From an uncultured Pseudomonadota bacterium (GTDB taxonomy: Bacteria > Pseudomonadota > Alphaproteobacteria > Rs-D84), in the NCBI GenBank assembly GCA_947307295.1, contig CAMZIQ010000001.1, forward strand, positions 104,968-168,967: 64,000 nt of DNA. Reading direction: 5' to 3'. Below, in pieces: positions 14,349 through 25,552 of this stretch; position 1 is the first letter of the stretch; the number at the start of each line of letters is the position of its first letter. Position numbers and translations under genes: made by a program. The notes under the pieces were generated by a model that saw only the letters and a list, made by a program, of their open reading frames with translations, was not told the origin of the DNA and searched no databases.

Positions 14349-15449
14349 ATGCAAAAATATCTGAATCAGATTTTGTGCGGTGATTGTATTGAAATTATGC
14401 GCAATATCCCAGACGCGTCTGTTGACGCGGTTTTTGCAGATTCACCATATAATTTACAATTGGGCGAAAAAACGCTTTACAGACCCGAAGATCAAACTGC
14501 CGCACGCGCAGTCCGTGACAATTGGGATTCTTTTAAATCTAATGCTGAATACGATGAATTTACTCGCAATTGGATGCGTGAATGTAAACGCGTATTAAAA
14601 CCAGACGGTGCGATGTGGGTTATTGGTTCCTATCATAACATATTCCGTGTGGGTGCTATATTACAAGACATGGGTTTTTGGATATTAAATGACATAGTTT
14701 GGGTAAAAACAAATCCTATGCCGAATTTTCGTGGAACGCGATTTACAAATGCTCATGAAACGTTAATTTGGGCAACGCCGACCAAGACTGGTAAATATAC
14801 ATTTAATTATGAAACCATGAAGAAATTAAACGGTGGGAAACAAATGCGTTCAGATTGGGATATAAATATATGCTTGGGCGAAGAACGTATCAAAGATAAA
14901 AACGGCAAAAGTCTGCACAACACGCAAAAGCCTATGGATTTATTGCGTCGTGTGATTTTATCTTCGACAAAGCCAGGCGATATTATTTTGGACCCTTTTG
15001 TTGGTTCTGGCACAACAGCAGCCACCGCGAAAGAATTGGGTCGTCAATATATTGGCATAGACCGCGAAGAAAGTTATGTATCTGCGGCACGCGCACGTGT
15101 TGATAATATCACACCAATTGATTTGTCTGACATTGAAGTCAGCGCACCGAAACGCGATGCTGTCCGTGTCAGCTTTAACGAATTGATTGAAAGTGGTTTA
15201 TTATATGTCGGTCAAACATTGGTTGGTCCACGTGGTGATCGTGTTATGATTACACACGATGGTCAATTAATGCATACATTATATGGCAAAGCATCAATTC
15301 ATGTTATGGCGGCACGTATACAGCACAGCGTCAGCTTTAATGGCTGGGATTATTGGTCTGCGGAAAAGAAAGATGGGTCATTAGTTGCCATTGATGAAAT
15401 ACGTAAATATGTCCGTGACATAAAATCTAGTATGAAAAAAGCCGCATAA
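14349..15449 (+). CDS. ccrM: CcrM-like beta-class N6-adenine DNA methyltransferase with C-terminal extension
   Basis: Motif IV FADSPYN near the N-terminus and motif I DPFVGSGTTAATA afterwards, i.e. beta-class order. About 80 aa of C-terminal non-catalytic domain, as in Caulobacter CcrM. Confidence 0.85.
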   Translation: MQKYLNQILCGDCIEIMRNIPDASVDAVFADSPYNLQLGEKTLYRPEDQTAARAVRDNWDSFKSNAEYDEFTRNWMRECKRVLKPDGAMWVIGSYHNIFRVGAILQDMGFWILNDIVWVKTNPMPNFRGTRFTNAHETLIWATPTKTGKYTFNYETMKKLNGGKQMRSDWDINICLGEERIKDKNGKSLHNTQKPMDLLRRVILSSTKPGDIILDPFVGSGTTAATAKELGRQYIGIDREESYVSAARARVDNITPIDLSDIEVSAPKRDAVRVSFNELIESGLLYVGQTLVGPRGDRVMITHDGQLMHTLYGKASIHVMAARIQHSVSFNGWDYWSAEKKDGSLVAIDEIRKYVRDIKSSMKKAA

Positions 15450-15519
15450 CATTTCATCCATATATTCTAAATTAATTCTCCCCCCAGCATAGGGGAGCGC
15501 GGCGTAGCCGGAGGGGGTT

Positions 15520-15556
15520 AAAAAAACAGCCAATTATTTGGCTGTTCTTTTATTTT
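15520..15556. terminator. Bidirectional rho-independent terminator between ccrM and the convergent secreted protein gene
   Basis: Hairpin aacagcc-aattattt-ggctgtt flanked by an A-run and a T-run. Confidence 0.55.
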
Positions 15557-15571
15557 AAACATTATACATGC

Positions 15572-17719
15572 TTATGGGTTAACAAAAGGAACCACAACAG
15601 CAGGAATTACCGGCACAGGGAATTTCTGCAACATAATAGTTTCATTTCCTACACAAGCTGTCCCAGCCTTTTTACATGCACCCGTGACATTTTCATAAAC
15701 ATCTTTGTTATGCAATGTTTTGGTCTTTAAATTGATAGTCACTTTTTCACAGTCCATCAATCTGCTGTTAAATTGACGGCAAGCCTGATGCCAAGATTCC
15801 CAATCTGTGACGACAGCCGTTGGTGACAAATAATCAGGCAAATTCAAATTCCATTTCACATAGAAATCTTTCAAAGTATCGATTGTATGTGATTTGCCAT
15901 ATCCCACAGAATTCAAACCATCGCCGACTTTGCAAGTAATATTGCTGCGTTCGACCAAAGCGGTAATTCCAGTCACAATACCACCAACACCAGCACCTGT
16001 GACAGTACCAATCGCGATACCTTTGCCAACATCTTTACCTTTGTCAGCATCAACAACTTCACCCCTGTCAACACCAGCATTCACACCGATAGTGCTTAAC
16101 AACGATCTCAGACGAGCAATCTGTCCTTGAACAACAGATGCTCTCAAGCATTGCCACTTTGGCTTACACACAGGGTCATTTTCTTTATTTATCACATTCA
16201 ACGGTTTAAACGTACAATGTTCATAAGCTTTTTTCGCATTTTCACAACCTGCTTTCACGGTAGCCTCTATACAACCTAGTTCACATCCATTTGCACCAAC
16301 ACCAATGTTAATAATACGTTCAGCTTCCCTCTGCTCAATTCCTGCATTCTTCAAAGCATCTTCACAAAGTTTCATTCTTTCTTCATAAAGCGCTATCCTG
16401 TCATACAATTGATAAATTTTTTTACACGCCTCTTCGTCTATACCAGTTTCAGTCTGTTGAAAATCAATATCTTCACATTCTATATCATCAATTTTTATTC
16501 CGGTTGTGTCATCAACTTTACCATTACAAAAATAAGTTTTTAACACTTCTGTTTTATGAAGTTTGGCAATCTTGTCCGCCAAGTTTTTACGATACGTTTC
16601 ATCTTCACAAACAGATTTGTACTTTTCTTTTTCTACTTTCTTATTATCATCAACTTTTTTATCATAAACCGCTTTACCAACCAAACCACCGACAAGCGCA
16701 CCTGCACCTGCACCAACCGGCACACTGATAAGTGCAGCAGATTTCGTTTTATTCATCAATGAAAAATCAAACAAATCTTTGTTGCAAATAAATGTGCCAC
16801 CAGATTTCTGCCATACTTCTGCAACAGAATCATCACCAAATCCCAACCATTTATTTGTAATCAAATTATCTTTGTTATATGCCGCAACACGAATTAAACA
16901 TTCAGCATTTTTCGCATCCCAACGCGCATAATGTCCGCGATTACCATCGTATCCGGTGGTATTAACCTCTACCCCCTGGGGATTGTCTTTTGTTTCTTTA
17001 CCATTATTGGCTTCGTTATACGCACCAACTTTATTTTGATATTCTGTAGCAACTTCATTAATATCTGACACAGCCGCAAACGAAGAACCATATGTATTTC
17101 TGTCCAACAACAAACATGTGTTTTCAGCCTGATTCGGAGTCAAACCAGTTTTACGCAAAACAAAGTTATAATATTCTGGTTGAATCACGCGCGAATTGAA
17201 ATCAAGCCACACATCAGGTGTTTCATTATAAACATTACGGCAATTTATACGAACTTCTTTAACACATTGGTCGACAACTGTCTGACAAAGGCTCATCCCT
17301 GTCATAATAGAATTACGAACATCTTGGTCAAACAAATCGCGCATTCCACCCTGCAAAGAGCCATTTTCCACACATCTTTGCAAATCAGCCATACACATAG
17401 CAACTGTATATTGAGAATTTTCCACACCCCCATCTGGGCAATTACTGGGCGTTGGGTGATCTGGATGGTCTGGATGATCCGGATTATTTGGATTATTTGG
17501 GTTAATAGTTGGCAAACCATTGTTCTGTCCACCATGACCGATAGTTGTCACCGCAGGATTTCCAATCGTGTTTAATGTCACAGTCGGCATAGTCGGCATA
17601 CGTGCAGAGCTGCCACCACCGTTTGAACCGGTACGACCAGTTGCAGCATTAGCGCCACAAAAAGCCCCAAAAACCGCGATACTTACCACAGATTTCCCGA
17701 ACAAATTCAATATTTTCAT
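15572..17719 (-). CDS. Large secreted cysteine-rich protein (715 aa) with a NPN/HPD repeat segment and Gly-zipper-like segments; divergent relative of the Cys-rich family
   Basis: Signal peptide MKILNLFGKSVVSIAVFGAFCGANA. NPNNPNNPDHPDHPDHP encoded by tandem DNA repeats near 17440-17500. Many Cys pairs. GAGAGALVGGLVG and GTVTGAGVGGIVTG segments. Confidence 0.6.
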   Translation of the reverse strand: MKILNLFGKSVVSIAVFGAFCGANAATGRTGSNGGGSSARMPTMPTVTLNTIGNPAVTTIGHGGQNNGLPTINPNNPNNPDHPDHPDHPTPSNCPDGGVENSQYTVAMCMADLQRCVENGSLQGGMRDLFDQDVRNSIMTGMSLCQTVVDQCVKEVRINCRNVYNETPDVWLDFNSRVIQPEYYNFVLRKTGLTPNQAENTCLLLDRNTYGSSFAAVSDINEVATEYQNKVGAYNEANNGKETKDNPQGVEVNTTGYDGNRGHYARWDAKNAECLIRVAAYNKDNLITNKWLGFGDDSVAEVWQKSGGTFICNKDLFDFSLMNKTKSAALISVPVGAGAGALVGGLVGKAVYDKKVDDNKKVEKEKYKSVCEDETYRKNLADKIAKLHKTEVLKTYFCNGKVDDTTGIKIDDIECEDIDFQQTETGIDEEACKKIYQLYDRIALYEERMKLCEDALKNAGIEQREAERIINIGVGANGCELGCIEATVKAGCENAKKAYEHCTFKPLNVINKENDPVCKPKWQCLRASVVQGQIARLRSLLSTIGVNAGVDRGEVVDADKGKDVGKGIAIGTVTGAGVGGIVTGITALVERSNITCKVGDGLNSVGYGKSHTIDTLKDFYVKWNLNLPDYLSPTAVVTDWESWHQACRQFNSRLMDCEKVTINLKTKTLHNKDVYENVTGACKKAGTACVGNETIMLQKFPVPVIPAVVVPFVNP

Positions 17720-17834
17720 AGTCTTTCCCCCAAATTCTTATAAACATATTATACCATACAAGCGATATTAAAAAAAGTTTTTTTTAACATTTTTTTAAAA
17801 AATATTTATTTTCATTAAAATTTTATTAAAAATA

Positions 17835-17862
17835 TTGACAAATCATTTTTATTGTCTATAAT
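17835..17862 (+). promoter_or_regulatory. Candidate sigma70 promoter (-35 TTGACA, 16-nt spacer, -10 TATAAT). It would place the TSS at or within 1-2 nt of the ATG at 17869, giving a leaderless mRNA
   Basis: TTGACA at 17835-17840 and TATAAT at 17857-17862. The ATG is at 17869 and there is no room for an SD. Confidence 0.35.
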
Positions 17863-17868
17863 ATCGGT

Positions 17869-18825
17869 ATGAAAAAGATTTTTGAATTTTTAAAATCGAA
17901 TCCAATTATTGTTGCTTGGACAATATGGTATTTTACTATTGTCTGGTTTATTTTGCAATTCATATTCAACTTTGACATGTTTTCTTACTATTATTGGCAC
18001 AGATTTTTTCATTCTTCCTTGCATGGTTTTGGTGGTTTTATGTTTGGCACAATCGTATACGCATCTTTGCCAATGTATATTGCTACAACAATAACAGTAT
18101 ATCGTAAAAAAGAATTTGTTATACCTGTCCCATTTTCAAAAACAGCATCTTCGATTTTTTCAAAAATATTCCCAACCAAAAACGAACCTGTACCAGAAAC
18201 AATCGCGATTGAACCAGAACCAGAAAAAACATCTGAACCAGAATACCCAGCCGATTTACCACCTGAATTACGCGTTCCTTTTAAACGCGCACTAAATCGT
18301 TTACCGCTGACATCTGGTGTATCTGCATACAATCAACCAAACATGTCTATTAAAAAAGCACTTAATCCAGAACCCGAAAAAGAAAATTCACCGATGCCTA
18401 TACCGATGGATTTTGATATTTCTGACGAAATACCAACCGATATGAACGATTCGGTGCCTACATTCACAGATATAAATTTTGACACACCTATTATGACTGA
18501 AAAAGAATTAGAAAACGACACTACAAAATATTTGAAAAAGAATAACATAGAATATGAAACTTATCGCGATTATGTCGCAACTGAAAAATTTGTGATATAC
18601 GAACATAATGACGAAGAATTTTGGGTAATGGATGGCGATTCATGGTTTGCTGCTGGAAAACAAAAAGATTCACCAATACCAGAATTATTAAATCTGGCAA
18701 AACAAAATAATTTAAAGCCTGTTATTTATCTGGCATCACAAAACATCATGGATATAGATAACACAATTAAAAACTTTGAATCAATGGGTATTCATGTTAT
18801 AAAAAAACTGGATGAATTAGTCTAA
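17869..18825 (+). CDS. Hypothetical membrane protein with two N-terminal TM helices and a Pro/Glu-rich linker
   Basis: Hydrophobic segments WTIWYFTIVWFILQFIF and FGGFMFGTIVYASLPMYIATTITV. PEPEKTSEPEYP low-complexity stretch. Confidence 0.55.
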   Translation: MKKIFEFLKSNPIIVAWTIWYFTIVWFILQFIFNFDMFSYYYWHRFFHSSLHGFGGFMFGTIVYASLPMYIATTITVYRKKEFVIPVPFSKTASSIFSKIFPTKNEPVPETIAIEPEPEKTSEPEYPADLPPELRVPFKRALNRLPLTSGVSAYNQPNMSIKKALNPEPEKENSPMPIPMDFDISDEIPTDMNDSVPTFTDINFDTPIMTEKELENDTTKYLKKNNIEYETYRDYVATEKFVIYEHNDEEFWVMDGDSWFAAGKQKDSPIPELLNLAKQNNLKPVIYLASQNIMDIDNTIKNFESMGIHVIKKLDELV

Positions 18826-18881
18826 CCCAATTCATCCAGATTTAATTCATTATTCGTCAAAACTTACTGTTTTTGTAATGA

Positions 18882-21557
18882 TTATCTGGTCTGACTAGAA
18901 CTTACTGTGTTTGTAGTTCCATCACTAAAACTTACTTTTCTGTTTGTAGTCACCGGATTATCCCATTGTTTACAAGCTCTTTTATCTGGATCACCAGCGC
19001 GACGAGTTTTTAAACAATTAGTTATAGTTCTGGTGACAATACAAGCATTCTGTGTTGCTTCGTATCTAGACACTACAACTGCCTTGTAATTCCAATCCTC
19101 AATATTTTTATTCATCGCTTCGCAATATTCTTTCTTAGATTGGTCATTTTGTTTCGTCATTTTTGACAACGTAGTTATATCTTTATCACGTTGCGCTTCA
19201 AATTCTGACAGCTTTGTATTGTAATTAGTAATCGCTGTGTTATAAACATCATTCACAACTATTTCATGAACAAAGTTTGTTAACTTTGGAAATGTGGCAT
19301 TATTTTGTTGTGTAGATTTATTAAAGTTTGCACTATTAAATCCTTTTACTTCGCGACCTGTCATACAATATTGAACTTTTGGTTCGTTTTCAATAGAATG
19401 TATTATTCTGTCAGCAGAATCATTCAAAGAATTAACAATGTTTTTAACATTGTCATCCGCATTATTACTATATTCAAAATACCTACCACTTGAACTACTA
19501 CTCTTAGTCAAAGGATCATTAATTGTGATATATGTCCCGAAATTAACCTGTCCGCTTATAACAGGTGTATAATTTTCCTGTATTTCGCTTTCAGATACCA
19601 AAGAAGCACTATCTTTACACTGTTGTAGTTCATCTCTTTTACATACTTGATACTTCAAACTGGTGGCACCAATATTTTTATCCAACAATACGCCAGAACA
19701 AGAATCTGTGCTGCCACAAACTTTTATCATTGCTTCATTCACAGCATTTTGACACGCAGTCAGCATAGCATTATTTATCTGCAAAGCCACACCTTGGGCA
19801 ACCTGGGCAACATATGTTGTCACTGTGGTCTCTGATTTATCTTCACTCATACATGCAGTTAACTTTTCATATGGACACAATTCCGCGATATCATTTGTAT
19901 CTAAACCGATACATTCCGAATAATCTTGACCGCAAACACCTTGGATACAAGATTTTACTTCCGCTGTACAAGCATCTACCTTCATAGCTGCCAAAGTAGC
20001 CACTAACCCACTCCACAAACTAGATTTTTCTGGCTGTTCATATGTTCCGCCTGTGGCTTCTAAACACGGCTCTAATTGCACTTTACAAAAAGATTTATAA
20101 ACCAGCGGATTCGACAAACAGATATCGTAATCTGCATCATTATCACCGAATTGTGACTTACATGCCTTTTTAAAACATTCTGCTGCTGCTGGGATACAGT
20201 TAGACCGTAAATTTTGTTCAGCAATTTCTTCCGCACTTTTCAAAGCCGGCGCAGAATTATGCAAGAACGCTTTCCAAACTGCATCATTTTTGTTTGCATT
20301 CACACATTGTTTCGTCACGCTTTCACAAATTGTCTTTTTAGATAACAATTGTTCCATCGTGCTTGCCGCCAAAGTAATGTTCGCACCAGCAACTGCACCT
20401 TTGATAGTTGTTTGTTTTGCTTTTTTACCATTGCTATTACCTTTGACATTTTCTTTGGCAGCCAAAGTCACACAACCAGTAAAATCATCGCCACATTCCG
20501 CAGTAGTTTTCATACACTGTGTAAATGCAATAACACATTCACCAGTTGTTGCATATTTATTCTGATTTTGAAATTCTTCCAAAGCAGCATCACGCAAAGC
20601 CTTTTGCGCAGTCATCAACTTTTGTTGACTTTGATTTTTTTGCGCTTTTAAACTGTTTTCATAAGCAACACAATCTGATTTAATCTTTTGTGCATAAACC
20701 AATTGCAACATTGAACCATATTCTTTACATTTATTTGATATCTGATCTGCACACAGTTTTGCACTAGCCTTATACAAAGCATTACCCTTTTTATCAGCAA
20801 AACTATTAACATCAGAATCAGAACTTGCGAACAAATCATCTGCATCATTGAATATATTGTTATCCCACGCTGACAAATCTAATGTTCTGGCTTTCTTTTT
20901 GTTTTTTTCACTATTTTCCGCATTTACTGTTTCATCAGCAACACTTTTTGCACGTGCCATTACCGCTTCTGCACCTTCGCCCATTTGAATACGTTCTACG
21001 CCTTTGGTAGCCATAAGATAACTTTGTTCATCCAATTTTAAGATATCTTCCAAAACACTATCCAATTCCACGATTTTATCATTACATTGACAACGTCCAC
21101 CGTTTGCATTATCCAGCATACAAAACGCATCCATACAGCCATAAAAAGCATCCTGACATTCTTGTGGCACAGTAGTATTTTCAGTCGCTGTTGCGACCTT
21201 GGTTCCTGTTTGAATAACTTTCTGTGTAGCACCAGCACGCGCAGCCATCACTTGATTTCCACCAGCACCCTTAACCTGTGTCTGTTTTTTACCAGCACGT
21301 GCAGCAACATTGCCCGATACAGTCGCCGCCGGTTGAGAAACATTTGCATTTTGCTTTACACCAGTATTTGCAACTTTCTGTCTTGCACCAGCACGCGCAG
21401 AAACAACACCCGATGTCGCCTGAGTCGCGGTCGATGTTGTCTGGGTCGCACCAGTATTGTTACTGGTTCCGCGTTCGCCACGTACATTAGCGGCAAAAGC
21501 CCCAAAATCTGCCATACACAAAGATAAAGCAACAGCTAAAAACATACGTATACGCAT
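18882..21557 (-). CDS. Large secreted cysteine-rich protein (891 aa), paralogous family member
   Basis: Signal peptide MRIRMFLAVALSLCMADFGAFA. T/A/Q-rich linker. ECQDAFYGCMDAFCMLDNANGGRCQCNDK motif identical in pattern to the paralogs. Confidence 0.7.
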   Translation of the reverse strand: MRIRMFLAVALSLCMADFGAFAANVRGERGTSNNTGATQTTSTATQATSGVVSARAGARQKVANTGVKQNANVSQPAATVSGNVAARAGKKQTQVKGAGGNQVMAARAGATQKVIQTGTKVATATENTTVPQECQDAFYGCMDAFCMLDNANGGRCQCNDKIVELDSVLEDILKLDEQSYLMATKGVERIQMGEGAEAVMARAKSVADETVNAENSEKNKKKARTLDLSAWDNNIFNDADDLFASSDSDVNSFADKKGNALYKASAKLCADQISNKCKEYGSMLQLVYAQKIKSDCVAYENSLKAQKNQSQQKLMTAQKALRDAALEEFQNQNKYATTGECVIAFTQCMKTTAECGDDFTGCVTLAAKENVKGNSNGKKAKQTTIKGAVAGANITLAASTMEQLLSKKTICESVTKQCVNANKNDAVWKAFLHNSAPALKSAEEIAEQNLRSNCIPAAAECFKKACKSQFGDNDADYDICLSNPLVYKSFCKVQLEPCLEATGGTYEQPEKSSLWSGLVATLAAMKVDACTAEVKSCIQGVCGQDYSECIGLDTNDIAELCPYEKLTACMSEDKSETTVTTYVAQVAQGVALQINNAMLTACQNAVNEAMIKVCGSTDSCSGVLLDKNIGATSLKYQVCKRDELQQCKDSASLVSESEIQENYTPVISGQVNFGTYITINDPLTKSSSSSGRYFEYSNNADDNVKNIVNSLNDSADRIIHSIENEPKVQYCMTGREVKGFNSANFNKSTQQNNATFPKLTNFVHEIVVNDVYNTAITNYNTKLSEFEAQRDKDITTLSKMTKQNDQSKKEYCEAMNKNIEDWNYKAVVVSRYEATQNACIVTRTITNCLKTRRAGDPDKRACKQWDNPVTTNRKVSFSDGTTNTVSSSQTR

Positions 21558-21583
21558 AAAAATCTCCTTAATCCTATGAATTT

Positions 21584-21612
21584 ATTATATCACAAATAAA
21601 GACCGTTCACAA
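21584..21612 (-). promoter_or_regulatory. Candidate promoter for the 18882-21557 gene (-35 TTGTGA, 17-nt spacer, -10 TATAAT; strong RBS AAGGAG upstream of the ATG)
   Basis: On the minus strand, TTGTGAacggtctttatttgtgaTATAAT, followed by AAGGAGattttt ATG. Confidence 0.35.
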
Positions 21613-21682
21613 ATAAATATCTTGAAAAATCTAAATTCTTTTTCCGTTAACATTTTTTCTCCTTTTTGTCATCAAACTAAAA

Positions 21683-21722
21683 ACCGTTCGGCACGCCATC
21701 GCGTCCGAACGGTTAAAAATCC
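21683..21722 (-). terminator. Rho-independent terminator on the minus strand
   Basis: Long imperfect hairpin aaccgttcgg...ccgaacggtt followed by a T-run on the minus strand. Confidence 0.5.
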
Positions 21723-21770
21723 ATGTAAAACAAATCGGAACGATTTGTTTTAGACCCGGCAAAAACTACC

Positions 21771-21792
21771 TGTGTGTGTGTGTGTGTGTGTG
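21771..21792. repeat. (TG)11 dinucleotide microsatellite
   Basis: tgtgtgtgtgtgtgtgtgtgtg read directly in the sequence. Confidence 0.9.
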
Positions 21793-21899
21793 TAGAAAAC
21801 TGCGGGTTTCAGCCGATTCATAGTTTTTCTTCCTTTTTCTTTATGGGAATATTATACCAAATTTTCATACGAAATAAAAGTTATTTATTTTATATTCTT

Positions 21900-22335
21900 A
21901 GTCTTGCTTGTCATTGCAAAGGAGCGAAAGCGACTGCGGCAATCCATCCGCTTTCGCTTACGCTACAGCGAGATTGCGCCAGCAAGCGAAGATGCGTCGC
22001 TGTGTCATTGCGAGAATGGACAATCGACAGTAAGCTTTGCGTCTGTCGTTGTCCGTTCGTGGCAATCCAGGTCTTATTATGTGTTTTGCGTTCCGCAAAA
22101 CTACTTTTTTTATTCACCTGGATGCTCACGCTCGTTAACACTCGCTCAGCATGACATAGTGTGTGTTTGATTTACCCGAAGTCGCGCCGTAGCCTTGGCA
22201 AAGGCGGATGGATGCTCACGCTCGTTAACACTCGCTCAGCATGACATGGTCCTTTGGGTCCCATCCCCCAAGGGGGAGAATTTAAAGTTCCCCTCCGATG
22301 GAGGGGTGGCACGAAGTGACGGGGTGGTCTTTATT
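21900..22335. ncRNA. GC-rich, highly palindromic intergenic block. Candidate structured RNA or repeat element; strand and identity unknown
   Basis: GC content is clearly above the flanks. Perfect inverted repeats (agcgaaagcg/cgctttcgct; cccccaaggggg; cccctccgatggagggg). A 39-bp direct repeat ggatgctcacgctcgttaacactcgctcagcatgacat occurs twice, 89 bp apart. No ORF with a plausible product. Confidence 0.2.
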
Positions 22336-22387
22336 TTCAAGATTTTGCGTTTTGTAAAATTTGTTCCGCTATCATCATACAAAGGGG

Positions 22388-22421
22388 TTTAAAAAACCAC
22401 CCGTTTGGGTGGTTTAATTTT
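22388..22421. terminator. Bidirectional rho-independent terminator immediately downstream of rplQ
   Basis: aaccacccgtttgggtggtt hairpin flanked by A- and T-runs. Confidence 0.6.
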
Positions 22422-22437
22422 TTATACAAATGAAAAA

Positions 22438-23004
22438 TTATTTTCCAGTTGCACGACGTTTAACAGCAACCGCTTTTTTTGCACCTGTTGCTTTTGGCGC
22501 AGCAGCTTTCTTTTCAGCAGCAACTTTCGTTGTTTTTGTAGTCTTTTCTGCCTTTGGAGCTTTTACTGCTTTTTCTTCTTTTGCCACAGGTTCTGTTGTT
22601 TCAGCAGCAACTGTTTTTGGTGCGACTTTCTTTGCATTTTCATCTCTGTCAACCAATTCGATAATCGCCATTGGTGCAGCGTCACCATAACGGAATCCAG
22701 CCTTTAACACGCGTGTATAACCGCCAGGACGTTTTGCATAACGTGGTCCCAAAACTGCGAACAATTTTTTAACTGTTTTATCAGAATTGTTTCCCAATTC
22801 AGATGCAGTCAAACGACGATTTGCAACTGTATCAACTTTTGCGCGAGTAATCAATTTTTCGACTACACTGCGTAAATCTTTTGCTTTTGGCAAAGTTGTT
22901 TTAATTTGTTCTTTTTCAATCAAATTTTTCGCCAAACCAGTAAACAAGGCTTTTCTGGCATTTGTGTCGCGATTGAATGTACGACCTGCTAATCTATGTC
23001 TCAT
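22438..23004 (-). CDS. rplQ: 50S ribosomal protein L17 with a Lys/Ala-rich C-terminal extension
   Basis: L17 core [21 protein letters not shown]...[10 protein letters not shown], then about 60 aa of an AKKAAAPK-type tail. Confidence 0.9.
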
Positions 23005-24363: not shown

Positions 24364-25479
24364 CTACTCTGAACGTGAACGCGAAACTACTCTGCTATTT
24401 ATGCGCCCCTGATTCAAACATGCTGGAAATTCACTAGGATTTCCTTCGCCAATTACAAACTTTATTTTGCCTTTTATACACACAGATGCTTGGGGATTAT
24501 ACGCAGTTCCAGGACCTTCTGTTGTATATCCAGGCGCACACCCGCTACATGTTTCTTGACCTGCCCTGGAAAAAGTTCCCTGTGGACATATCTCTATACC
24601 ATATATATAAGAACCAAGAAAATCAGCATCACAAGCTTGAACATGATGATCATTACCATACGGACACATATATCCTGCTGTACATTCACGACATGTACTG
24701 CCATCCATACAATGTCCCGGTGGACATGACGTACACGCACTTTGCCCACCCGAAATATTTATAGAATCATCCGGACAATTTTTACACCAATCTGAATTTG
24801 CATCTTCTGGCGCTTCAACATAAACATAACTCATTGGTGAAACAGATACGCTGTTTCCTTCTTCCTGCACCCAGGTACTAGTATTACCATCATAATGCCA
24901 TTTAACAGAAATTTCGCCATTACATTTTGTTGTTCCTTGCTGGTTTAATTCGATTCCACATTGGGAAATTCCGGTATAATCAGCAAAACGATAAGGTCGA
25001 TACAATTCTGCATCATAACCCTCTGTCGGACAAGCCTTACATTCAGCTCCATCCAAATATTGTCCGGCGACCGTACATGGCACACATGCTGTTCGTTCTT
25101 CGTTGGAATATGTACCCTGAGGACAAGCATCACACTCTGTGGCACCGGAATTTTCAGCATAATAGCCAGTCTCACAAGGCAAACATTCCGATGCGCCTGA
25201 ATTTGATGAAAAAGTACCAGCTGAGCAAGATTGCCTTTCACCATTGGAACAAAAATATCCTGGCTCACAATCAACACATGTCTCGTCCGATGATGACCAA
25301 TACTGTCCCTGGGGACATTGATTTTCAGGGGTATTATATACACCACCATACAAAAATTCATCAAACTGATCTGCTGGAATTTCATAATCAGATGTTCCGC
25401 CCAAATCACAATACGCAACACGACTGAACATCATGCAAATCAAACCCACGCAAAAAAACAATGATTTTTTTAATATCAT
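24364..25479 (-). CDS. Secreted cysteine-rich repeat protein (CXXC/GxY repeats, furin-like or VSP-like) inserted between rpsK and rpoA. The track uses a TTG start at 25488; an ATG at 25479 gives MILKKSLFFCVGLICMMFS
   Basis: Signal peptide, then repeated units such as CVDCEPGYFCSNGERQSC, CLPCETGYYAENSGATEC and CDACPQGTYSNEERTAC. Confidence 0.6.
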   Translation of the reverse strand: MILKKSLFFCVGLICMMFSRVAYCDLGGTSDYEIPADQFDEFLYGGVYNTPENQCPQGQYWSSSDETCVDCEPGYFCSNGERQSCSAGTFSSNSGASECLPCETGYYAENSGATECDACPQGTYSNEERTACVPCTVAGQYLDGAECKACPTEGYDAELYRPYRFADYTGISQCGIELNQQGTTKCNGEISVKWHYDGNTSTWVQEEGNSVSVSPMSYVYVEAPEDANSDWCKNCPDDSINISGGQSACTSCPPGHCMDGSTCRECTAGYMCPYGNDHHVQACDADFLGSYIYGIEICPQGTFSRAGQETCSGCAPGYTTEGPGTAYNPQASVCIKGKIKFVIGEGNPSEFPACLNQGRINSRVVSRSRSE

Positions 25480-25552
25480 TTCTTTCAAACTGCCTTTCAG
25501 ACTTTATTTTATCAATTTTAAGGTTTATTAGCAATTTAAAAATTATTTCAAT

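Follow-up and report, generated by a model that had tools for sequence, protein, structure and literature searches.

The locus downstream of rplQ in this genome raises a simple question: what is the GC-rich, palindrome-dense block found at 21900-22335 of the 64-kb window (the window being the whole stretch of DNA that was analysed), and at which level, DNA or RNA, could it act? The original prediction left three answers side by side, namely a novel structured ncRNA, a cluster of REP-like elements, and a decayed mobile element or pseudogene debris. As judged from sequence comparisons, the best explanation is the second one in an extended form: the block is probably a mosaic island in which small hairpin repeats of DNA, of dispersed type, are assembled, comparable in this respect to the NIMEs of Neisseria or the BIMEs of E. 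coli, and whose core would consist of four TGTC-tagged units of the CGTC-REP/SRM class serving as DNA-level Ssn sites.

Genomic setting and composition

The block is held in the 880-bp spacer that separates rplQ (22438-23004, minus strand), which has rpoA directly upstream of it, from an 891-aa ORF (18882-21557, minus strand), whose product is cysteine-rich and starts with a sequence resembling a signal peptide. The host RpoA is 94-96% identical to those of animal-gut MAGs labelled Candidatus Enterousia or uncultured Alphaproteobacteria, and the host can thus be considered a Candidatus Enterousia-like gut alphaproteobacterium.

The compositional description given in the original prediction proved to be sound. 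The GC content of 21900-22335 is 51%, against 37% for the whole window; more precisely, the fraction is 0.512 at 21896-22336, compared with 0.371 in the window and 0.32 in the remaining spacer, a level matched by only 0.03% of the 441-nt windows. The lack of coding potential was borne out as well, none of the six ORFs present in the block having family support (Pfam, E<0.05), and the terminators proposed on both sides were found. On the right, the rplQ intrinsic terminator, a minus-strand hairpin at 22394-22415 followed by a T-run, is conserved in relatives and constitutes the right edge of the lineage-specific DNA; on the left, a minus-strand hairpin with its T-run lies at 21682-21714, and an extra minus-strand terminator at 21752-21726.

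Four tagged units in one inverted duplication

Perfect inverted repeats of 8-10 nt had been reported in the block and are indeed there, e.g. at 21923-21932/21949-21958 and 22083-22090/22094-22101, as is the motif gtcattgc...ggcaatcc, with its two copies at 21910-21945 and 22004-22068. The direct repeat described as 39 bp long also exists in two copies (22119-22156 and 22209-22246, where chance would give none), its length having to be corrected to 38 identical nucleotides, or 42 with one mismatch. What was absent from the earlier description is the relation between these features. Read on the minus strand, the 38-nt repeat is tGTCATGCTGAGCGAG-tgttaac-GAGCGTGAGCATCCA, with the architecture tGTCATTGCGAG...GTGGCAATCCA, i.e. 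the gtcattgc...ggcaatcc unit type in the reverse orientation. The block therefore contains four units of one design, tGTC-AT stem...AT-CCA, two of them (A1 and A2) on the plus strand and two (B1 and B2) on the minus strand.

All four units start with a TGTC tag, continue with an AT-first stem (ATTGC/GCAAT in two, ATGCT/AGCAT in two) and end with a CCA tail (CCAGGT in two, CCATCC in two), and in each of them GTC stands before the palindrome and C directly after it. They are 36-66 nt long; a basal stem of 5 bp leads into an internal loop, beyond which lies either a second hairpin or a 7-nt insert. When the full signature was defined as [CT]GTC, an AT-first 5-bp stem, the matching AT and CCA, four matches were obtained in the 64-kb window, all of them in the block and within 340 bp, with none elsewhere; dinucleotide shuffles of the whole window gave 0.11 matches and shuffles of the block only 0.0005.

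Unit A1 (21909-21947, plus strand; tGTC-ATTGC, aaagGAGCGAAAGCGACtgcg, GCAAT-CCA) is a degenerate copy of the common type GTCATTGCGAG-GAGCGAAGCGAC-G(T/A)(G/A)GCAATCC, relative to which it carries indels. Unit A2 (22003-22071, plus strand) shows canonical ends and a long inner stem-loop (tGTC-ATTGC, GAG, a 44-nt inner hairpin, GTG, GCAAT-CCAGGT), and its DNA fold of -16.7 kcal/mol (z -4.75) corresponds to a strong hairpin. Unit B1 (22116-22156, minus strand) is made up of tGTC-ATGCT, GAGCGAG, tgttaac, GAGCGTG and AGCAT-CCAGGT, while unit B2 (22203-22246, minus strand) is identical to B1 over 38 nt and has the tail CCATCCGC, as in A1; the 38/38 identity points to a recent duplication or gene conversion. 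With nearest-neighbour DNA parameters, A1, B1 and B2 did not fold better than shuffles, A1 and the B units being weak hairpins, and these units may thus be decayed.

Units A2 and B1 are oriented tail-to-tail, on either side of a dimer spacer (22072-22115, plus strand) with complementary ends AGGT..ACCT and a terminator-like hairpin (22083-22101) followed by TACTTTTTTT. Moreover, the inter-unit segments of the left arm (21948-22002) and of the right arm (22157-22202) are inverted homologues of each other. When 21906-22075 was aligned globally with 22112-22252 in reverse complement, identity was found at 98 of the 122 aligned positions (80%), and the score of 53.5 compares with a shuffle mean of 26.6 and a maximum of 45.5. 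Since the arms A1-spacer-A2 and B1-spacer-B2 are 80% identical in inverted orientation, the block can be described as one large inverted duplication around the terminator-like hairpin. The same identity accounts for the strong fold of the block as a whole (z -6.4 on the plus strand and -8.7 on the minus strand against shuffles), and long-range pairing between the arms is also visible in the MFE folds of both strands.

Relationship with known repeat classes

By their anatomy, the four units belong to the superfamily of CGTC/TGTC-tagged REPs, which includes the Neisseria dRS3/NTS and the Ssn-related motifs. According to Di Nocera et al. (2013; PMC3733652), CGTC REPs are characterized by an unpaired CGTC tag (TGTC being a common variant, and CCTC another), a complementary AT at the start of the stem and a CCA tail; they predominate in alphaproteobacteria, show no association with transposases, and include dRS3 of Neisseria as CGTC-1. 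The window units share with these families (among them dRS3 and Rickettsia RPE-4 and RPE-6) the TGTC tag, the AT at stem positions 1-2 and the CCA tail, as well as the alphaproteobacterial host, the position downstream of genes and the formation of dimers capable of folding into larger structures. They differ in that the known families have an 8-9-bp stem with a 4-5-nt loop, whereas the window units extend over 36-66 nt and include an internal loop. Furthermore, known dimers are mostly head-to-head, whereas that of the window is tail-to-tail, an arrangement called rare in the same work (PMC3733652).

The second term of comparison is the system described by Chenal et al. (2025; PMC11893778), in which dRS3 is extended to the 28-nt NTS, CGTCATTCCCGCGMAVGCGGGAATCYRG, and SsnA, a 94-aa single-domain GIY-YIG protein, binds the NTS and cuts a few nucleotides upstream. 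SsnA acts on ssDNA only, on one strand only, and does not bind RNA; cleavage depends on the 3 nt that precede the palindrome, and binding on the C that follows it (PMC11893778). In addition, motifs of this kind were found nearby 71% of the SsnA homologues, and on both sides in 42% (PMC11893778). The window units resemble NTS/SRM in the 5' (C/T)GTC tag placed before an AT-starting palindrome with a C directly after it, and in being directional, intergenic and clustered; besides, their stem types flank small GIY-YIG genes, also in the Enterousia lineage. They are unlike NTS/SRM in having bipartite stems, where a conserved GAG/GTG internal loop separates the 5-bp basal stem from an inner hairpin that is variable or long, and not a single 8-9-bp stem, in not matching the published string, and in lying in a 64-kb window where no ssn gene was found.

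The published SRM string, HGTCWYN(0-2)YYVSBRHN(0-5)WNVSBRGN(0-2)RNCYNB, does match the canonical NTS and has 14 strict matches in the relatives, but gave no match in the window (0/4 units) and only 38 among the 259 tagged hairpins near ssn-like genes, so that the window units can be included in the class only in a wider sense. As the remaining 221 of these near-gene hairpins, with both window types among them, escape the string, genome counts based on it are probably underestimates.

Dispersed copies and covarying stems

Units of the same types are widely dispersed. The pattern GTCATTGCGAG-N(5-35)-GTGGCAATCC was found in more than 120 IMG/VR contigs, with 195 units among the matches listed and a rough chance expectation of about 1. 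Among these listed matches, the free segment between GTCATTGCGAG and GTGGCAATCC is itself a hairpin, the mean perfect stem being 4.2 compared with 2.5 in shuffled segments, and the inner segments contain many GNA triloops, frequently GAA, GCA and GTA. In the relatives (1.26 Mb from 80 Enterousia-type genomes), 17 units of the window design are present at other loci, often as inverted doublets beside terminators, and blastn of the spacer against the same 80 genomes gave unit-sized matches at other loci only. A literature search for the unit sequences returned unrelated primers only, and no match to the exact 36-mer of unit B was obtained in the genome_contigs collection.

The comparison of such copies reveals changes that preserve the stems. 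A1 is 89.7% identical to a unit located at an unrelated locus of relative L123, in which ATTGC/GCAAT is replaced by ATTCC/GGAAT with pairing kept, and the B-like units of relative L182 differ from B by the compensatory double change from ATGCT/AGCAT to ATACT/AGTAT. A tail-to-tail dimer is also present in relative L131, again at another locus, and the framework of its spacer, CCAGGTnTTATTATGTGT-hairpin-ACTACTTTTTT..ACCTGG, is homologous to that of the window. As regards two of the signs by which the original prediction proposed to tell a genuine element from debris, additional copies exist in large number elsewhere, and positional conservation at the locus is absent. The suggestion of a cluster of REP-like elements is the one upheld by the TGTC tag, the AT-first stem and the CCA tail, and by the presence of the same types in relatives, in phage contigs and beside GIY-YIG genes.

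Many of the GTCATTGCGAG..GTGGCAATCC units are found in phage contigs (L001-L120, e.g. L011, L017 and L003), in some of which they are arranged in tandem with spacers of about 10 nt, at least 15 tandem units being present in the 13-kb contig L011. Genes of terminase or portal type lie next to them, and the stretches examined are devoid of ssn-like genes. In phage contigs with abundant A-type units, about 960 kb in all, no ssn-like gene was detected. As a separate observation, relative L199 contains, at 15099-15203, two inverted copies of CGTCATTCCCGCGAAGGCGGG(A/G)ATCC, one of which is the exact Neisseria NTS core while the other differs at one stem base.

Association with small GIY-YIG nucleases

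Two relatives, L184 and L189, encode single-domain GIY-YIG proteins of 101-113 aa (Pfam E ~1e-15), each beside tagged hairpins. Judging from their size, single-domain architecture and concordant repeat association, these proteins would fall in cd10448 together with SsnA of N. meningitidis; no match was obtained when the sequence of the Enterousia GIY-YIG protein was compared with the PDB. The link between enzyme and repeat was analysed in 80 metagenome loci encoding homologues of the small GIY-YIG proteins of Enterousia, and a tight association was observed. Tagged hairpins occur at 8.4 per 10 kb across these loci, their density rising to 47 per 10 kb within 200 bp of the GIY-YIG gene as against 3.3 per 10 kb at 1-3 kb. 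Within 500 bp of the gene, a tagged hairpin is present in 58 of the 80 loci, and in 39 of the 80 on both sides. Moreover, the unit types at these loci include those of the window (25 of ATTGC type and 27 of ATGCT type), many abutting the gene directly: ATTGC-GAG and ATGCT-GAGCG units lie 0-200 bp from GIY-YIG genes in L209, L240, L261, L262, L264, L272, L273, L277 and others, and GTCATGCTGAGCG..CGAAGCATC units flank the GIY-YIG gene in L240. The tagged-hairpin class is represented in the uncultured gut lineage Candidatus Enterousia.

Within the 64-kb window itself, neither tblastn with 82 proteins nor a profile search detected a GIY-YIG gene or a remnant of one. Weak matches at 1941-2048 (plus strand), opposite a 730-aa minus-strand ORF (614-2806) and without Pfam support, were rejected.

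The most likely mode of action would be at the DNA level. Whenever the strand with the forward motif becomes single-stranded, as in replication, transformation or conjugation, each unit would fold into a hairpin, in which the GTC at its flank and the C that directly follows the stem may provide the contacts for a small single-domain GIY-YIG nuclease of the Ssn family, allowing its binding and a nick a few nucleotides upstream. Such a scheme would imply that this genome encodes the cognate nuclease and that the window copies are still recognised by it, both of which we infer.

Lineage-specific gain and a natural deletion

In the closest syntenic species, the spacer between rplQ and the next gene measures 60-140 bp and contains a terminator and a conserved promoter, whereas the window has about 770 extra bases, compared with the sister species, between the rplQ terminator and that promoter. 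No positional conservation of the block was observed among the 80 related genomes. The block is thus recently gained, lineage-specific DNA.

Different insertions, of about 630 bp, occupy the rplQ-downstream spacer of two relatives, L130 (7025-7665) and L148 (11705-12334), and carry a reverse-strand ORF of about 130 aa, not of the GIY-YIG type, which suggests that insertions recur in this spacer.

Further evolution of the locus can be followed in L315, the single conspecific contig found from RpoA and NrdR look-ups, which has identical RpoA and NrdR and 97-99% DNA identity to the window; an exact-protein look-up of rplQ returned no entry. This contig lacks positions 15498-22268 of the window (6.77 kb), and with them three genes, all four tagged units and the AT-rich remainder. 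Each breakpoint falls within a hairpin, TCCCCCaaGGGGGAG at 22264 in one case and CTCCCCccagcataGGGGAG at 15478 in the other; the two hairpins are similar and share 7-10 nt at the junction. The window-type junctions are near 22269 and 15497, while the L315-type fusion is TTCTCCCCCAGCATGGGGGAGAATTT (L315 7966-7975), and the fused junction forms a perfect 8-bp hairpin, TCTCCCCC-agcat-GGGGGAGA. Five more distant relatives keep the gene order of the window (rplQ, the 891-aa gene, a 318-aa gene, a 715-aa gene, a CcrM-like methylase and NrdR), which indicates that this order is ancestral and that L315 carries a deletion.

At its opposite end, the deleted cassette is bordered by a partner island of hairpins (15474-15519, plus strand), which consists of CTCCCC ccagcata GGGGAG, GGC gta GCC and GGAGGGGG, and contains the second breakpoint of L315. 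Three of the four outgroup spacers judged at this site (L122, L127 and L130) have no hairpin island, only a terminator, and the fourth (L121) has an extra, unrelated CCCC/GGGG hairpin. In the 64-kb window, GC-rich hairpins that are neither terminator-like, nor located in an ORF, nor part of a tRNA occur only at the two cassette borders. The cassette proteins (891, 318 and 715 aa) share only 32-68% identity among relatives in which the proteins on either side of the cassette reach 87-96%, and no Pfam family was found for any of the three; the cassette genes are hypervariable and fast-evolving, and probably encode secreted or surface-exposed proteins.

The presence of islands at both ends of a hypervariable cassette, together with a natural deletion, provides a concrete case for the proposed link between repeats and plasticity, and the island would influence recombination or exchange of the adjacent cassette. 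By analogy, the bordering of the cassette could be likened to the NTS/dRS3 clusters that bracket surface-protein genes in Neisseria. Neisseria NIMEs are also multi-family repeat mosaics beside fast-evolving, probably surface-exposed genes, with presence or absence at the strain level. They are unlike the present case in that a single island pair in one window is dealt with here, and in that the deletion took place via 7-10 nt of microhomology in C-run/G-run hairpins and not in the tagged units.

C-run/G-run hairpins and a second repeat family

To the right of the four tagged units, the block contains two C-run/G-run hairpin elements. The first one (22264-22277; TCCCCC aa GGGGGA, TCCCCCaaGGGGGA) is the site of one breakpoint of the 6.77-kb difference from L315. 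The second one (22288-22328, plus strand), retained in the conspecific L315, is a double hairpin, here called C-type, of the form TTCCCCTCC gat GGAGGGGTG gcacgaagtga CGGGGTGGT, and represents a second dispersed repeat family. Its first-hairpin pattern, TTCCCCTCC-N(3-6)-GGAGGGGTG, matches 34 IMG/VR contigs, and the full framework was recovered in 35 distinct units with invariant frame and flanks and a covarying second (inner) hairpin. About five copies exist in relatives, L178 (one) and L181 (two) having the full framework and being counted among the 35, and L141 having two variant copies. A literature search for the sequence of this element returned nothing relevant.

The general form of the family is TTCCCCTCC-N3-GGAGGGGTG-(variable hairpin, often with a GNA triloop)-CGGGGTGG(T/G), as seen in L281-L314, L141, L178 and L181. 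Its units are common in phage contigs and sometimes adjoin TGTC-tagged units (L298 and L313). Clustering of the neighbouring ORFs of A-type or C-type units in phage contigs yielded ordinary phage genes only, with no recurrent partner, and the Ssn-like profile had no match in the phage contigs carrying either type.

A more speculative reading, to be taken as tentative, joins these observations: the islands at 15474-15519 and 21900-22335 may be the borders of an exchangeable cassette, the GTCATTGCGAG..GTGGCAATCC and GTCATGCTGAGCG.. units may form a distinct Ssn specificity class outside the published SRM definition, and TTCCCCTCC-N3-GGAGGGGTG-hairpin-CGGGGTGGT may be a second, undescribed double hairpin recognised by a protein and common in phage.

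Alternative explanations

The alternative that survives best, plausible though less probable, regards the block as a neutral relic. Its units would then be defunct tagged REPs that an inverted duplication has multiplied on the spot and that no enzyme of this genome recognises any more, and they would act only as substrates for slippage or recombination. Such a relic would hardly be expected to keep the Ssn-critical positions (tag, AT-first stem and tail) intact in all four units, nor the strong hairpin of A2, and the 38/38 identity of B1 and B2 speaks of recent duplication or gene conversion. It would, on the other hand, explain the folding of A1, B1 and B2 at the level of shuffles and the indels of A1, and is consistent with four copies in one cluster and none elsewhere in the 64 kb, with the failure to find an ssn-like gene in the window, and with the deletion of L315 through microhomology in neighbouring hairpins.

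A role at the RNA level, in which the block would be transcribed and work as a structured ncRNA or else as a terminator or 3'-stabilising module like those proposed for classical REP/BIME, is improbable. The very stable fold predicted for both strands, which would be its main argument, is that of an inverted duplication; the dimer spacer offers a terminator-like hairpin with a T-run, also found in L131, and action as RNA hairpins has been proposed for REPs in general (PMC3733652). Against this, the strong rplQ terminator precedes the block, the units occur in both orientations, no positional conservation exists in the 80 relatives, the tagged A/B part is missing from the conspecific contig, and the inner loops favour GNA triloops. 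Triloops of this kind, as in mini-hairpins of the d(GCGAAGC) type, characterize stable hairpins of DNA rather than of RNA. The absence of conservation, the upstream terminator, the two orientations and the DNA-type triloops together make an RNA-level role unlikely, and the lack of RNA binding by SsnA points in the same direction.

The earlier remark that no match to RNase P, tmRNA or SRP RNA motifs could be made agrees with the covariance scan (Rfam 15), in which only two tRNAs reached the gathering score in the whole window and nothing did so in the block. Matches with E up to 10 were at chance level, and the best one at 21500-22500, of 26.9 bits compared with a gathering score of 55, fell on the rplQ terminator. 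The idea of a novel structured ncRNA is not supported, and this candidate is reassigned to a repeat class whose partner enzyme was identified only in 2025.

Mobilisation as REP/REPIN by a RAYT (an IS200/IS605-like tyrosine transposase) is very improbable. The REP/BIME and REPIN-RAYT systems of gamma-proteobacteria have in common with the block the short extragenic palindromes, the arrangement in inverted doublets and the association with an endonuclease that is specific for single strands and descends from mobile elements, and the inverted doublets of the window do resemble REPINs and BIMEs. In those systems, however, the tag is GTAG and the enzyme an HUH tyrosine transposase, whereas the tags of the window are TGTC and the gene co-localising with its unit types encodes a GIY-YIG nuclease; CGTC repeats, moreover, have no transposase association according to Di Nocera et al. 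(PMC3733652).

Finally, debris of a decayed protein gene or insertion sequence is scarcely credible even for lineage-specific DNA lying inside the ~770 extra bases, given that no ORF of the block has family support, that no similarity to GIY-YIG proteins was found, and that the sequence is fully explained by recognisable repeat units and their inverted copies. Accordingly, the part of the original prediction that invoked decayed or degenerate remains is not supported as regards a decayed gene, no remnant of a GIY-YIG or other protein having been found; the DNA does, however, represent a lineage-specific gain.

On anatomy alone, a CRISPR array (the tandem units of L011 being only about 10 nt apart), a retron msr/msd (no reverse transcriptase) and an integron attC site (no R''/R' GTTRRRY core) were also rejected as identities.

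Other features of the region

The AT-rich part of the spacer contains a (TG)11 microsatellite (21771-21793, minus strand) inside a 23-codon mini-ORF with its ATG at 21821 (MNRLKPAVFYTHTHTHTGSFCRV). The start signals of this mini-ORF (21819-21859) comprise an AAGGAA ribosome-binding site and an extended -10 element, TGGTATAAT, at 21859-21851; after the mini-ORF come the two minus-strand terminators (21682-21752), all of it being inside the lineage-specific 770 bp. No homologue was detected in the 80 relatives, and the whole looks like a small, possibly phase-variable transcription unit. The conserved promoter that serves the 891-aa gene is overlapped by another mini-ORF (21587-21652, minus strand; MLTEKEFRFFKIFICERSLFVI), which has AAGGAG as its ribosome-binding site. 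In addition, the gene at 24364-25488 (minus strand), located between the rpsK-side ribosomal genes and rpoA, encodes a cysteine-rich protein of 374 aa, whose repeats are eukaryote-like, of the Ephrin_rec_like and TNFR-like kinds (Pfam E 3e-14), and is present in the conspecific L315 too.
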